Positions 15,001 through 21,000 of a DNA stretch of 64,000 bases are shown piece after piece (positions within the stretch are counted from its first letter, which is position 1; each line of letters opens with the position of its first letter). The position numbers are program-made. Source of the stretch: Escherichia coli (lineage in GTDB: Bacteria; Pseudomonadota; Gammaproteobacteria; Enterobacterales; Enterobacteriaceae); assembly GCF_003334335.1 (NCBI RefSeq), contig NZ_QOWQ01000008.1. One strand, given 5' to 3'.

Positions 15001-18000
15001 ACGGACACCGCGCTGATAACTCGCCGCCGCGAAGCCGGTCAGATCGCCCACTACGCCGCCGCCAAGCGCCACCAGCGTAGTATCGCGACCATGCGGTTTT
15101 TGTAACAACGCCGTAAAGACGGTATCGAGTACAGCCAGGCTTTTATACTGCTCACCGTCAGGGAGGATAACGCTATCGACGTTAACACCCGCCTGTTCAA
15201 GTACGCCGCGGACCTTATCGAGATACAGAGGAGCCAGGGTTTCGTTGGTGACCAACATGACCTGCTCGCCCGATTTCAGCGGTAAGAATGAAGCTGGTTC
15301 ATTAAACAAACCAGATGCGATGGTAATTGGGTAACTACGTTCCCCGAGAGTAACGACAATCCTCTCCATAACGCGACATCCACCTTAATTACTGTACCCG
15401 CAGACGAGTGTATATAAAGCCAGAATTAGTTGCTTTCCAGCATGTGAATAATCTGGTTTGCAACCACTTTAGCGCTTTGATCATCAGTACGAATGGTCAC
15501 GTCGGCAATCTCTTCATACAGCGGATTGCGTTCATTGGCCAACGCTTCCAGAACTTCACGCGGCGGTGTTTCAACGTGCAGCAACGGGCGTTTTTTATCA
15601 CGCTGCGTGCGTGCAAGTTGCTTTTCGATGGTCGTTTCAAGATAAACGACAACGCCACGAGCGGAAAGACGGTTACGCGTTTCACGGGATTTCACAGAGC
15701 CGCCGCCAGTAGCCAGCACAATACCCTGTTTCTCGGTCAACTCATTGATGACCTTTTCTTCGCGATCGCGGAAGCCTTCTTCGCCTTCTAAATCGAAAAC
15801 CCAGCCCACATCAGCTCCGGTTCGTTTCTCAATCTCTTGATCGGAATCGTAAAATTCCATATTGAGTTGTTGAGCTAACTGGCGCCCAATAGTGCTTTTT
15901 CCGGCACCCATAGGCCCAACCAGAAAGATATTGCGTTTCTCTGCCATTTTTTCGGTACTACTAAGACTATTCGTTAATGATAAACCCGCTTCGCTCAGAG
16001 AGCGCCGCAGGACATGAACTGAAACCTCATAAGATATTGCGAGAGTCAGACTGAAAATTATCTCAATACTCCAGCGGGTTTGGCAACTGAATAAATCACC
16101 CATCCCTCTGCATATCTGGTCGCTGCAAGCGCGCTGCCTTGCTACCACCGCTCTGGCGATAAATCACCGGGTAAGATTAGCGTAAAAAAGACAGCAAAAT
16201 GCCGCCTGAATGATAAATCATCATCATGGAACGCAGGCAGCGAAGAGCACCAACTCTCAAATCGGTACTCCTTGTATGCTAAATACCTGCGCGCGTCAAA
16301 TAGATGAAACACGTTCAGCGTAAAAACATTACCGCTTTTACGGCTGTTTACTCACTGGAAACCAGTCGTGGCGTGATAAACACCACTAACTCGCGTCGTT
16401 CATCTTCTTTTCCGTCATGACGAAATAATTGCCCGAACCAGGGAATGTCGCCAAGCAACGGTACGCTATCCTGACCCGATTTATTTTTACGGGTAAAAAT
16501 GCCGCCCAGCGCCAACGTTTCTCCGCTTTTGACCTCGACCTGCGTTTCGATCTCCTGCTTATCAATCGCCAGCACTTCGCCATCGGCCTGCTGTAGCACC
16601 TGCCCCGGAACGTTCTGGCTGATGTGTAATTTCAGCCGGATGCGACCTTTTTGTAACACCGTGGGCGTGACCTCCATCCCCAGGACGGCCTCTTTAAATT
16701 CCACCGACGTCGCGCCACTTTCCCCGCTGGAAACCTGATATGGAATTTCGCTCCCCTGTTTAATGCTGGCAGGCTGAAGATGTGAGGCCAGCAGACGCGG
16801 ACTGGCGATAATATCCAGCTGCTGTTTTTGTTCGAGCGCGGAAAGCTCAAGATCCAGCAAGCGTCCGTTGATGCGCCCAATGTTAAAACCGACATGCGTT
16901 GTCGCCGTCGCTACGGAGAGGTCGCTACCAAGCGTGGTGACTTGCCCAACGCCACCAGCGTGTTGCGCATCGGCCAGCGTCCATTTCACGCCTAACTCAC
17001 GCAAACTTTTTTCATTAATGGTGACAATATGCGCCGACAGCTCAACCTGCCCGACCGGCAGATCCATTTGCGCTACCCACTGTTCAAGCGCGCTTAACGC
17101 CGTTTTGTTATCTCGTAGCAAAAGGCGATTGGTGCGTTTATCGACGGTCATACTCCCTTTGGCACTCAGTAGCTTCTCCCCCGCTTTCGCCAGTTCTCCC
17201 GCGTCGGCGTATTGCAGGGTTATACTGCGATTTTCCAGCGGCAGATTTGCCTGCGCCCGCGCCTGCTCCGCCTCCTGGCGGGCGATATTGTTATTCTGCC
17301 AGGCAATGGAATGCACTGAGAGAATGTTGCCTTCCTGCCGCGTTATCAGTCCGGCGCTTTTCACTACAGTTTGTAGTGCCTGCTTCCAGGGAACATCTGT
17401 TAGATGTAACGACACCGTACCGCTGACGTCTGGCGACACGACCAGGTTCAACTTCTCCTGTTCAGCCAGCGCCTGCAACACCTGAGCTACCGGAACGTCA
17501 TCCACCATCAGCGTCACTTTTTGCGGCTTTGCCGCCTGTACGCCGGGTATCAGCATCAACAGTAGTGCGGCTATCCATTGCTTCATTTGTATCTCCTTGC
17601 CGTTGCCACAACCATTGTGGCGGTTCGCAGTTTGTCCCGGTACCCAGCGTTAGTACGTCTGGCGTCAGCTGTAAAATTGTCCAGCCGTTTTCCAGCACAT
17701 CGTTTTGCTGCACCCGTCGCCATTTCTTTTGCCCGTCTTTTATTACACCGATGATGCGCTCGCCTCGCCCTACCATCCCCTGATAGCGCCACTGGCTAAG
17801 TTCGCTAATCCGGCATAGATCTTCCGGCGGTTTAAAAGGGTCACGCATACCGGTTAAAAGGCACAATGCAATACCTGCCAACAACCAGCGTTTAACCCTC
17901 ATGCGGCGTCTCCAGTTGTAGCGTGAACAAAAGATCATCACCTTCCACGCTTAACGAAAAACGGCTCACGCTGACGTTGCGCTCTGCCAGCCGTGTAAAT

Positions 18001-21000
18001 GCCGACGGCACTGCTTCCCACAGCGTTTTCAACGCCAACTCGCCTCCCTGCGCGGATGGATGCCAGGAAACCAGTTGCGCGCCGGATAACTGAAAATCCA
18101 GTGGCGAAAAGGGCAGCGTTTTTTCCTCGCTGAAGGGAGTGGTGTCTACCAGGCGATACAGTGCGGCCCACTGCTGGTGATGACTTGCCCGTAGTCGAAT
18201 TAATGCGTCGCGCTCTTCATGGTGTGTCGATGACAGAAAAATGAGCGTAACTAACATCAGCAACCAGAATGCCCAGCAAAGCTGGCGGAGGCGGGGTGAT
18301 GTGGCGAACCACCAGTCAAAGAACATGTTCATCGCTAACCTTCCTTGTTAACTGATACTCAAATTGCCAGCGTCCCTGCGCATCCTGCTGCGTGGCTCCC
18401 CGCTGATTGAGATGAAAAGATGCATCCTGGCGGAGTGACGTTTCTAGTGCGTTTAACGCGGTAATGCTTGTTGTCAGCCCCTTGATCTCCAGCGTTCCCT
18501 GCTGCCAGCTTATCGTTGTCAGCCAGGCGTGCTCGGGTAAAAGCGCCGCCAGTGCTTCCAGCGCAGATTGCCAGTCGCGGGTAAATTGTCGCTGGCGCTG
18601 CCGTTGCGAACGCTGTTCGCGTAACTGCTGTTGCTCCAGCAAACGTGGCTTCGTTATCTGTAAGCTGCGGGCGAGTTGTTGTTCCGCCTGAAGCAAAACT
18701 GCGTCTATGCGCGCTTCGGCGCTGCCTGTCAGACGCAGTATTAGCGTTATCCCGACGGCCAGCAGCAGAGGCGCAACGAACATCAGCAACCAGAAACGCA
18801 GAAAAGCGGTCCGGCGTTGCTGTCGCCAGGGCAAAAAATTAATTGGCGGGTTCATCAGTACGCCTTCCCAAGCGCCAGCCCCAGCGCGATGGCAAAGTCT
18901 CCACCTGGCGGCGGTAGCGGCGGCTGACGAACAGAAACGGCCTCCCAGGGATCAAATCCGCCTTCGCCACATATCGCGACGCTTTCGGGATCAACGGATA
19001 ACGCTGCCGCCAGCTCCTTCGCGCTAGTCATCCCCACCGCCAGTTTGCGCCCCCAGCTATAGCGCGTCGCCCACAGCCACTGTTCGTTATCACGCCAGGC
19101 CAGACATTGCTGATGAGAAGGTAAAAAAGGCAGGAATCGCTGTAATGCACTGGCATCCGGGGTGATCGCGCTCACATGAACACGCAACCTTTCTGCCAGA
19201 GTAAGCAGCGTTGCCAGCTCTTTGCTTTGCGCGGCAGTCACGTTATAGGCGGGACTGAGTGAGTCTTCGCTGTAATCGAAGCGCAGGGAGTCCGGATCCA
19301 TATCCAGCTCGCGGGCCATCGTCCCTGACAGCCAGGCCGTTTGCTCCCGCTCACCAAGGGACATCGACGGGCGCGGAAATGACCGCTGTAATGTGCGACT
19401 GGCGGGAAACGCCAACATAATGTGATGACGCTGCGGCAGTTCGCGACTCCACGGTAACAACGTTTTAGCCAGCTGCTGCGCATCAACAATCCGCCCATCT
19501 TTGATAATGTCGTTCTCCAGCGGCAAGCGCCACCAGCGTTGCAAAAAGCATTCTTTTGCGCCCCGCACGATCGCAACCGCTACCGCTTCTTGCTGTTGTA
19601 AATGCAAACCAATTTGCCAGATCTTAAATGCCATTGTGATGATCTCCTTATCACCCGTCACTCTGACGGGTATATCAATGCGTCTGGCTTGCCTTTATAC
19701 TACCGCGCGTTTGTTTATAAACTGCCCAAATGAAACTAAATGGGAAATTTCCAGTGAAGTTCGTAAAGTATTTTTTGATCCTTGCAGTCTGTTGCATTCT
19801 GCTGGGAGCAGGCTCGATTTATGGCCTATACCGCTACATCGAGCCACAACTGCCGGATGTGGCGACATTAAAAGATGTTCGCCTGCAAATTCCGATGCAG
19901 ATTTACAGCGCCGATGGCGAGCTGATTGCTCAATACGGTGAGAAACGTCGTATTCCGGTTACGTTGGATCAAATCCCACCGGAGATGGTGAAAGCCTTTA
20001 TCGCGACAGAAGACAGCCGCTTCTACGAGCATCACGGCGTTGACCCGGTGGGGATCTTCCGTGCAGCAAGCGTGGCGCTGTTCTCCGGTCACGCGTCACA
20101 AGGGGCAAGTACCATTACCCAGCAGCTGGCGAGAAACTTCTTCCTCAGTCCAGAACGCACGCTGATGCGTAAGATTAAGGAAGTCTTCCTCGCGATTCGC
20201 ATTGAACAGCTGCTGACGAAAGACGAGATCCTCGAGCTTTATCTGAACAAGATTTACCTTGGTTACCGCGCCTATGGTGTCGGTGCTGCGGCACAAGTCT
20301 ATTTCGGAAAAACGGTCGACCAACTGACGCTGAACGAAATGGCGGTGATAGCCGGGCTGCCGAAAGCGCCTTCCACCTTCAACCCGCTCTACTCGATGGA
20401 TCGTGCCGTCGCGCGGCGTAACGTCGTGCTGTCGCGGATGCTGGATGAAGGGTATATCACCCAACAACAGTTCGATCAGACACGCACTGAGGCGATTAAC
20501 GCTAACTATCACGCGCCGGAGATTGCTTTCTCTGCGCCGTACCTGAGCGAAATGGTGCGCCAGGAGATGTATAACCGTTATGGCGAAAGTGCCTATGAAG
20601 ACGGTTATCGCATTTACACCACCATCACCCGCAAAGTGCAGCAGGCCGCGCAGCAGGCGGTACGTAATAACGTGCTGGACTACGACATGCGCCACGGCTA
20701 TCGCGGCCCGGCAAATGTGCTGTGGAAAGTGGGCGAGTCGGCGTGGGATAACAACAAGATTACCGATACGCTGAAGGCGCTGCCAACCTATGGTCCGCTG
20801 CTGCCTGCCGCAGTCACCAGCGCCAATCCTCAGCAAGCGACGGCGATGCTGGCGGACGGGTCGACCGTCGCATTGAGTATGGAAGGCGTTCGCTGGGCGC
20901 GTCCTTACCGTTCGGATACTCAGCAAGGACCGACGCCGCGTAAAGTGACCGATGTTCTGCAAACGGGTCAGCAAATCTGGGTTCGTCAGGTTGGCGATGC

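Follow-up and report, generated by a model that had tools for sequence, protein, structure and literature searches.

The last two genes of the hofMNOPQ operon of Escherichia coli, which lies on the minus strand of the 64,000-nucleotide (nt) stretch analyzed here (assembly GCF_003334335.1, contig NZ_QOWQ01000008.1; hereafter the window), share 89 nt that are read in one frame as the end of hofP and in another as the beginning of hofQ. What is added here is the finding that so long an overlap of co-directional genes is genuine, found throughout the Enterobacteriaceae family, and selected in both reading frames. The explanation that serves best as a whole, to which we give a probability of roughly three in four, is a pilus or DNA-uptake operon inducible by Sxy and CRP, in which the overlap is largely passive in its length, the resulting HofP tail is under selection, and hofQ is initiated independently of hofP. 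Both the operon and the -89-nt junction have been on record before (RefSeq; PMC10666635), and nothing is new in the identity of the locus itself. As to the overlap, we found it tabulated in the literature and found no paper that discusses it.

The segment corresponds to aroB-aroK / hofQPONM / mrcA of the E. coli chromosome, with 100% identity to strain M217 and 99.9% to MG1655, and the boundaries of the hof genes in the window are those of the RefSeq annotation of MG1655 by the Prokaryotic Genome Annotation Pipeline. The five genes are co-directional, in the order M-N-O-P-secretin, and are chained by overlaps of 1 nt (hofM/hofN), 17 nt (hofN/hofO), 11 nt (hofO/hofP), and 89 nt (hofP/hofQ). An earlier note made from the sequence had identified the same five genes and the same four overlaps, in exact agreement with the open reading frames (ORFs) and with MG1655, and the same pairs stand at -1, -17, -11, and -89 in a published tabulation of distances between E. 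coli genes (PMC10666635, Table S2). Of 5426 complete E. coli genomes searched, all 5426 contain the 3.6-kb hof region, with identities of 97-100%.

How does an overlap become so long? hofP reads one base behind hofQ: the first position of a hofP codon is the third of a hofQ codon, and its second and third positions are the first and second of the next one, so that each hofP codon consists of the third base of the preceding hofQ codon and the first two bases of the following codon. For a stop to arise in the hofP frame, a hofQ codon with T as its last base must be followed by a codon starting with AA, AG, or GA, which means that only Lys, Asn, Ser or Arg (AGN), Asp, and Glu permit a stop when they follow a T-ending codon. 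Because such residues are all but absent from a signal peptide, stops are nearly impossible in the hofP frame there, and within the first 28 codons of hofQ the sole site at which an earlier stop could arise is Ala19-Lys20. The actual hofP stop, TGA at 17500-17498, is made of the T of Asp29 (GAT) and the GA of Asp30 (GAC), and sits in the conserved HofQ motif V-D-D/E-V-P. When the HofQ protein was held fixed and its synonymous codons were redrawn, the median expected overlap was exactly 89 nt, and 67% of the recodings gave at least 89 nt. Thus, the length of the overlap follows passively from what the 5′ end of hofQ encodes, and it is not above chance once hofP runs into hofQ. The long overlap that drew attention in the first place is therefore real, and so is the reading of the last 29 hofP codons in a second frame, but its 89 nt do not call for a special explanation. 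Two things do go beyond chance: the arrangement is conserved across genera, and the codons bear a signature of selection in the hofP frame.

Before these can be interpreted, it must be asked whether the overlap is only a product of gene calling, with hofQ starting at a downstream Met or with hofP left untranslated. A survey of 338 genomes called every co-directional overlap of more than 60 base pairs (bp) a misprediction (PMC2478687). We regard such an artefact as very improbable here, and it is largely refuted already. The hofQ ATG (17586-17584) is the first ATG, GTG, or TTG of its open frame after the upstream in-frame stop, and is preceded, at a spacing of 6 nt, by a strong Shine-Dalgarno (SD) sequence, AAGGAG, at 17598-17593. 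Comparison was made with 48 related loci, taken from contigs of one genome per species, which belong to eight genera (Escherichia, Citrobacter, Salmonella, Enterobacter, Lelliottia, Huaxiibacter, Kosakonia, and Pseudenterobacter). In all the loci with an intact junction (46 related loci), a hofQ start codon stands at the homologous position, being ATG but GTG in a few Enterobacter and Huaxiibacter loci. It is accompanied across these loci by an SD-like motif and a signal peptide, whose n-region, h-region, and small-x-small pattern are kept in 46 of 46. A secretin must be exported and only the start at 17586 supplies HofQ with a signal peptide; the peptide is hence required. Neither of the two downstream Met codons is conserved: most loci have A, F, V, I, or T at position 11, and 22 of 39 have Val at position 27. 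On these comparative grounds, the start at 17586, which had been proposed from its signal peptide, can be regarded as secure, and the alternative that HofQ begins at Met11 or Met27, named in the same note as what would overturn it, fails. The other end of the overlap involves no prediction at all, as it is a stop codon, and two further points speak for a real hofP: its product is predicted to fold as a PilP with invariant cysteines, and selection is seen in its frame within the overlap, both of which are described below.

Conservation of the junction is nearly complete in the comparative set. hofQ is in the +1 frame relative to hofP in 47 of 47 analyzable loci from the eight genera, and the overlap measures 86-98 nt in 45 of them. 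It is 89 nt in 34 loci, 98 nt in four, 92 nt in three, and 86 nt in four, the last number rising to six once two Kosakonia loci (L032 and L035) had their starts set manually. The two that fall outside the range, Enterobacter sp. Bisph1 (L041) and Kosakonia quasisacchari (L048), form one clade in which an early stop leaves 35 nt. Among the 39 loci with a 27-codon leader, hofP stops at the Asp29-Asp30 junction in 33 and at Val28 (GTT)-Asp29 in five. The Asp29 codon is GAT in 36 and GAC in three, these three being exactly the loci that stop earlier, while residue 30 is encoded by GAT in 18, GAC in 17, GAG in three, and AAT (Asn) in one. The other junctions of the operon are kept as well: hofO and hofP share 11 nt in 45 of 48 loci, hofM and hofN share 1 or 4 nt in 43 of 45, and hofN and hofO share 17 nt in 26 of 46, where the other values depend in part on the start codon chosen. 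As a separate observation on the hofQ leader, Ile5 (17572-17574) has a rare codon, ATA, in 37 of the 39 species representatives; the final A of this codon is the first base of the sixth residue of the HofP tail past the hofQ start, which is Ser, Asn, or Thr.

Outside this set, the HofP family is small, and a HMMER search of 1.8 billion representative proteins gave only 91 clusters, whose named members also include Klebsiella, Cronobacter, Franconibacter, Atlantibacter, and Phytobacter. HofP is 126-138 amino acids (aa) long in most genera. In an alignment of 31 diverse members, the conserved domain is followed by a dipeptide, [N/H/Y]-[E/D], and then by a low-complexity tail, and the dipeptide is the out-of-frame image of the hofQ start, xATG A... 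The DNA of seven homologues with only 21-27% identity was fetched, and in these, too, the secretin gene overlaps hofP in the +1 frame, by 56-80 nt in six. In the seventh, the overlap is 35 nt as called, and the called secretin start, which lacks a signal peptide, is probably wrong. Wherever flanks are present, these distant loci keep the synteny mrcA / pilM-pilN-hofO-hofP-secretin / aroK-aroB. The position of the hofP stop is less strictly kept. That no lineage reads past Asp30 is true of the 47 species representatives and is broken by Enterobacter kobei, with a HofP of 151 aa (P0074/P0189), and by Franconibacter, with one of 161 aa (P0102), in which, to judge from protein length, the V-D-D stop must have been lost so that hofP reads 15-25 codons further into hofQ. 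Because of these longer proteins, selection for the exact position of the stop is not absolute. Taken together, the comparisons indicate that the hofP/hofQ overlap is real, family-wide, and ancient.

Is the hofP frame, then, of any consequence inside the overlap? We compared 16 phylogenetically independent pairs of species at the third positions of fourfold-degenerate codons whose hofQ amino acid was unchanged. Differences were found at 27 of 190 sites in the overlap (hofQ codons 7-27; 0.142) against 823 of 2970 in the rest of hofQ (0.277), which is an odds ratio of 0.43 (p = 2e-5). A general effect of 5′ ends or of signal peptides is rejected as the cause, since codons 7-27 of hofM, hofN, hofO, and hofP, which take in HofP's own signal peptide and the membrane segments of HofN and HofO, show no reduction (167/605 = 0.276 vs 1011/3572 = 0.283 for the remainder) and a normal frequency of third-position T; the hofQ overlap differs from these control segments at p = 1.5e-4. 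No reduction is seen either in the only pair with a truncated tail, L041 and L048 (5/10). A cruder test on all pairs, with a composition-matched synonymous ratio, gave 0.63 within genera and 0.86 between genera.

The composition of the codons tells the same story from another side. In fourfold-degenerate codons, T makes up 3.3% of third positions in the overlap, 16.1% in the remainder of hofQ, and 17-25% in the 5′ segments used as controls, and this five-fold depletion is present in every codon family and in every clade. Third-position T in hofQ becomes the first base of a codon of the hofP tail, TNN, which stands for Phe, Leu, Ser, Tyr, Cys, Trp, or stop. When the sites are sorted by what T would give in the hofP frame, T is found in the overlap at 0 of 199 sites for Cys (14.7% elsewhere), 1 of 36 for Phe (25.8%), 1 of 29 for Trp (18.2%), 4 of 128 for Tyr (12.1%), 10 of 200 for Ser (12.9%), and 2 of 23 for Leu (13.3%). 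The corresponding count for stop, 0 of 68, is circular because the stop defines the end of the overlap, and it is not used as evidence. The tails themselves, compared with synonymous codons drawn at the usage of the rest of the gene, contain no Cys among 1289 residues in 47 loci, where 5.3% is expected, and 1.1% aromatic residues instead of 4.3%. Premature hofP stops occur in two of the 47 loci (one lineage), whereas 39% of recodings would produce one. The seven distant loci add 129 tail residues without Cys, Trp, or Tyr. These patterns speak for translation of the hofP frame across the overlap. Both reading frames show selection, which in that of hofQ is seen in the conserved pattern of the signal peptide, and the synonymous-rate and codon-composition tests agree that dual coding constrains both proteins, as the earlier note had supposed when it proposed a codon-level comparison across the Enterobacteriaceae; the comparison shows the synonymous rate halved and third-position T depleted. 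For HofP, the constraint is of a particular kind. It concerns composition, namely no Cys, few aromatic residues, and no early stop, and does not extend to a conserved sequence; in the alignment of HofP tails, little is conserved beyond the imprint of the HofQ start codon and of the AXA cleavage site. Selection on the tail thus appears to act on what it is made of, not on a specific sequence.

What kind of protein carries such a tail? HofP matches its own Pfam family (HofP, PF10748, E = 4e-80) and has no match to Pfam PilP. An AlphaFold2 model built with 31 homologues predicts a six-stranded beta-sandwich, with a mean predicted local distance difference test score (pLDDT) of 92-96 per 10-residue block over residues 31-100, followed by residues 106-126 with pLDDT below 50 and no secondary structure. 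Among the top 14 matches of the model in the PDB by Foldseek (best E = 5e-4), ten are PilP chains, from Myxococcus xanthus, Neisseria meningitidis, and Pseudomonas aeruginosa, three are homology region (HR) domains of GspC/LspC/PulC, two of which are seen docked on the N0 domain of a secretin, and one is GspB. A HofP profile searched against PDB sequences found PilP entries only (E = 0.009-0.026). According to the model, therefore, the core of HofP would have the PilP fold. Cys30 and Cys92 are invariant in 31 diverse homologues, and HofP, a periplasmic protein, is probably disulfide-bonded. No conserved lipobox Cys was found in alignments of the family, the I-A-L-C of E. coli being non-canonical and not conserved, and the conserved RDPF motif that follows the signal peptide in the family is consistent with processing by signal peptidase I. 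The folded domain ends around residue 104, where the SD sequence of hofQ begins.

From these elements the following course of events can be proposed. hofP has no stop of its own before hofQ, and its PilP-like domain ends right where the ribosome-binding site of hofQ starts. A ribosome on hofP would go on, one base out of frame, across the hofQ start and the signal-peptide codons, until translation ends at the TGA provided by codons 29-30, in the Val-Asp-Asp motif of HofQ. The product would be HofP with a translated 30-residue tail, a disordered appendage rich in Gly, Ala, Asp, and Arg, which may be harmless or may serve as a simple flexible spacer beside the disulfide-bonded core. Selection would keep this tail free of Cys, poor in aromatic residues, and rarely truncated, and would thereby halve the synonymous rate of hofQ. 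We propose that the ban on Cys and aromatic residues exists because the tail must not harm a periplasmic and probably disulfide-bonded protein.

Several points weigh against this account of a passive overlap with a selected tail. The composition-matched synonymous deficit between genera is small, as the ratio of 0.86 tells. Part of the signal may lie at the RNA level, for T that would give only a harmless Ser is still depleted 2.6-fold. Fisher p values on pooled counts are inflated by the kinship of the species, and only the test on 16 pairs controls relatedness. The tail seems dispensable or variable in places, being reduced to about 11 residues in L041 and L048 and lengthened in E. kobei (151 aa) and Franconibacter (161 aa). 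Finally, the operon is barely expressed in laboratory culture, and that HofP and its tail are produced is what we infer from sequence.

A stronger claim would be that the tail has a function of its own: the disordered extension of HofP would contact HofQ, at its N0/N1 ring or gate, or another part of the envelope, and the overlap would be an obligatory dual-coding module, kept for the sake of the peptide. A length of 28-32 residues in 45 of 47 loci, in spite of the 39% of recodings that would truncate it, the halved synonymous rate, and the presence of some tail in every family member examined are all in line with such a role. On the other hand, the tail has no conserved motif beyond the two imprints mentioned above and is predicted to be disordered, natural truncation (L041, L048) and extension (E. 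kobei, Franconibacter) are tolerated, and across the family its length spans about 11 to about 55 residues. We therefore hold a functional tail to be rather unlikely. An equally doubtful, still bolder form of this claim is that hofP/hofQ is the longest verified, conserved, same-strand, out-of-frame overlap of two core chromosomal genes of the Enterobacteriaceae, in place since the origin of HofP, with the tail as a functional disordered module. If the tail did prove functional, the overlap would be an obligatory dual-coding unit and not a tolerated read-through.

Translation of hofQ has to be considered separately. In native E. coli gene pairs, an intergenic gap of 38 nt between stop and start cuts reinitiation by 80-90% or to zero, and the range for coupling places the upstream stop from about -8 to +10 nt of the downstream start (PMC10666635). 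hofM/hofN (1 nt) is inside this range, hofO/hofP (11 nt) and hofN/hofO (17 nt) are just outside it, and hofP/hofQ, with its stop 89 nt past the start, is well beyond. Because a 38-nt gap already largely abolishes reinitiation and the stop here lies 89 nt away, coupling of hofP to hofQ by classical termination and reinitiation, by analogy with those pairs, is unlikely, and the translational coupling suggested in the earlier note is not upheld in this sense. HofQ would instead be made by independent binding of 30S subunits at its own strong SD sequence within hofP.

The overlap might nevertheless be regulatory, in that hofP ribosomes crossing the hofQ start would set the ratio of HofP to HofQ by unmasking or occluding it, with the peptide itself irrelevant. 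Every hofP ribosome must cross the hofQ SD sequence and ATG, as both are within hofP, and a hofP stop falls within the spacer between them in no lineage. PilP-PilQ-type proteins form stoichiometric complexes, and hofP-hofQ are marked as complex subunits by Huber et al. Masking by RNA structure was looked for and set aside: the RNA of 17530-17660 has no significant fold (z = -1.27), and both SD and AUG are unpaired in the minimum-free-energy fold. A regulatory overlap thus finds no significant or SD-sequestering structure to act through, reinitiation is not expected at 89 nt (PMC10666635), and pure ribosome traffic does not predict a depletion that is specific to amino acids, with Cys and aromatic residues affected far more than Leu and Ser. 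Such a role is, in our estimate, improbable, although ribosomes moving along hofP may briefly block or clear the start of hofQ as they pass. We accordingly keep to the passive overlap with independent initiation of hofQ.

How does this junction compare with other overlaps? The longest co-directional overlap accepted as real in prokaryotes is that of holD/rimI, of 32-56 bp, and none above 60 bp was considered real (Pallejà, Harrington & Bork, 2008, PMC2478687). Both holD/rimI and hofP/hofQ are co-directional, out of frame, and conserved in Enterobacteria, and in both the gene ends are backed by orthologues. The overlap of hofP/hofQ is longer, with 86-98 nt in most sampled Enterobacteriaceae, above the 60-bp limit, and unlike holD/rimI it pairs a signal peptide with a disordered tail, the most permissive pairing possible. 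It is thus a clean counter-example to the conclusion of that survey. Its persistence would be cheap, as the overlap joins a signal peptide, tolerant of many sequences and poor in stops in the -1 frame, to a disordered tail that needs to avoid only Cys, aromatic residues, and early stops. There is also a practical side: recoding, codon-optimizing, or deleting the 5′ end of hofQ, for example in the Keio hofQ::kan allele, also alters HofP. Canonical PilP-PilQ gene pairs have a median gap of +13 nt (first quartile -1, third quartile +29, n = 281; PMC10666635, Table S4), against -89 for hofP-hofQ, and the lowest median that the same survey gives for a COG pair is -56.

The members of the operon resemble the PilMNOPQ proteins of type IV pili, as the earlier note had it. 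HofQ scores 855 bits with NCBIfam HofQ (NF007851) and 449 bits with TIGR02515 (PilQ; cut-off 284), and contains the Pfam domains STN, Secretin_N, and Secretin. Its best PDB relative is PilQ of Vibrio cholerae (6w6m), in which residues 158-569 align with HofQ 23-409, and alignment to Neisseria PilQ begins only at residue 322-338 of the latter. Because alignment to solved PilQ proteins starts only at these points, HofQ has no AMIN domains. HofN matches Pfam PilN (PF05137, E = 3e-9), and HofO matches only its own family (PF25319, 'HofO EspM-like domain', E = 2e-25). Matches of E. coli HofM are weak (T2SSL, E = 0.0024; PilM_2, E = 0.047), and its orthologues in the distant loci match PilM_2 (PF11104). 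The PilMNOPQ-like identities are thereby supported for HofQ, HofN, HofO, and HofP by their families, with the predicted PilP fold of HofP in addition. The operon would encode inner-membrane alignment proteins together with an outer-membrane secretin, for a type IVa pilus or DNA-uptake machine.

With type IVa PilMNOPQ of P. aeruginosa, M. xanthus, and N. meningitidis, hof shares the gene order, a secretin of the PilQ type (TIGR02515), and a PilN domain in HofN, and the HofP model matches the PilP structures 3jc8_Pa, 2ivw, 2y4x, and 2lc4. The HR domain of type IVa PilP docks on the secretin N0 domain, and by analogy the same may hold for HofP. There are differences: type IVa PilQ has N-terminal AMIN domains that HofQ lacks, type IVa PilP is a lipoprotein while HofP has no conserved lipobox Cys, and HofP forms its own family. 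The HofP core also matches HR domains of GspC and PulC in complex with secretins (3oss_C, 6hcg_e) of type II secretion, from which the same mode of docking would be expected, although GspC belongs to another machine with another gene order and has a PDZ or coiled-coil domain where HofP has a short disordered tail. In function (DNA uptake), hof is orthologous to comABCDE of Haemophilus influenzae and pilMNOPQ of V. cholerae, of the Sxy/TfoX and CRP-S regulon, and the closest solved secretin to HofQ is the V. cholerae competence PilQ named above; unlike these organisms, E. coli shows no natural transformation in ordinary laboratory conditions.

Palchevskiy and Finkel are said to have linked these genes, in 2006, to the use of DNA as a nutrient. 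Sxy induces yrfD (hofM) 16-fold in a CRP-dependent manner, and transcription of the yrfD-hofQ operon is otherwise poor (PMC1635313); Sxy-dependent natural DNA uptake needs hofQ (PMC3330819). Poor expression in the laboratory and a link to DNA uptake, both mentioned in the earlier note, agree with these reports, but its word "cryptic" is too strong for an operon with such induction. Kidney colonization is reduced in hofQ mutants of uropathogenic E. coli (PMC2649431), and a plasmid constructed for the assembly of PpdD pili includes hofMNOPQ, which was amplified as a single native fragment (bioRxiv 10.1101/856302). The hofM promoter fragment used for band-shift assays was reported to have two weak CRP-S sites and to bind CRP weakly (PMC1635313). 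In the window it falls in the 5′ coding part of the divergent mrcA (ATG 19730, plus strand), and the CRP-S core is seen there only as 7/10 matches, at 19803-19818 and 19884-19899; upstream of hofM no core (TGCGA-N6-TCGCA) with two or fewer mismatches was found. The positions of all these features are collected in Table 1.

Table 1. Features of the hofMNOPQ region and their positions in the window.
Feature	Position	Strand	Description
hofM	18855-19634	minus	259 aa, PilM-like, first gene of the operon; ORF and RefSeq
hofN	18316-18855	minus	179 aa, PilN-like; 1-nt overlap with hofM (TGATG); Pfam PilN
hofO	17892-18332	minus	146 aa, PilO position; 17-nt overlap with hofN; Pfam HofO
hofP	17498-17902	minus	134 aa, PilP-like, periplasmic; 11-nt overlap with hofO, 89-nt overlap with hofQ; Pfam HofP
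hofQ	16348-17586	minus	412 aa; secretin of the PilQ type, lacking AMIN domains
HofP folded core (about residues 30-104)	17591-17815	minus	Predicted PilP/GspC-type HR beta-sandwich; invariant Cys30 and Cys92
HofP C-terminal tail, residues 105-134, DTNEAMDSRTTVDADTRRTGGKAAKSDADGG	17501-17590	minus	Predicted disordered (pLDDT)
Dual-coding overlap, 89 nt	17498-17586	minus	hofQ codons 1-30; hofP codons 106-134 and stop, -1 frame
hofQ Shine-Dalgarno sequence AAGGAG	17593-17598	minus	Within hofP codons Gln102-Gly103-Asp104; 6-nt spacer to ATG
HofQ signal peptide MKQWIAALLLMLIPGVQA	17533-17586	minus	AXA-type cleavage site VQA, then AK
hofQ Val28-Asp29-Asp30 (GTG GAT GAC)	17497-17505	minus	Source of the hofP stop TGA
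Terminator-like hairpin	16331-16344	minus	4 nt past the hofQ stop; consensus scan only
Published CRP band-shift fragment, hofM (yrfD) promoter	19785-19910		Mapped from the primers of PMC1635313

Some minor observations may be added. One E. coli genome aligns over just 66% of the hof operon. In E. coli FP4, hofQ is annotated as a frameshifted pseudogene, Citrobacter koseri NCTC10786 has a frameshift within the hofP/hofQ overlap, and Enterobacter sp. EA-1 has several frameshifts in hofP and hofQ; unless these are assembly errors, the hof system appears to be decaying in some lineages. A few database proteins (P0031, P0043, P0048, and P0060) are HofP fused to HofO or HofQ domains, and such fusions probably stem from frameshifts or assembly errors where the genes overlap, as single-base errors readily produce them at these junctions. 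Across the whole window (1-64000), no Rfam family exceeded its gathering score, and scans for tRNA and tmRNA genes were likewise negative. In the 400-nt spacer between hofQ and aroK (15949-16347), a second terminator-like hairpin is located at 16207-16189 and a promoter-like site, which would serve aroK, at 16086-16057, both called by consensus match only.

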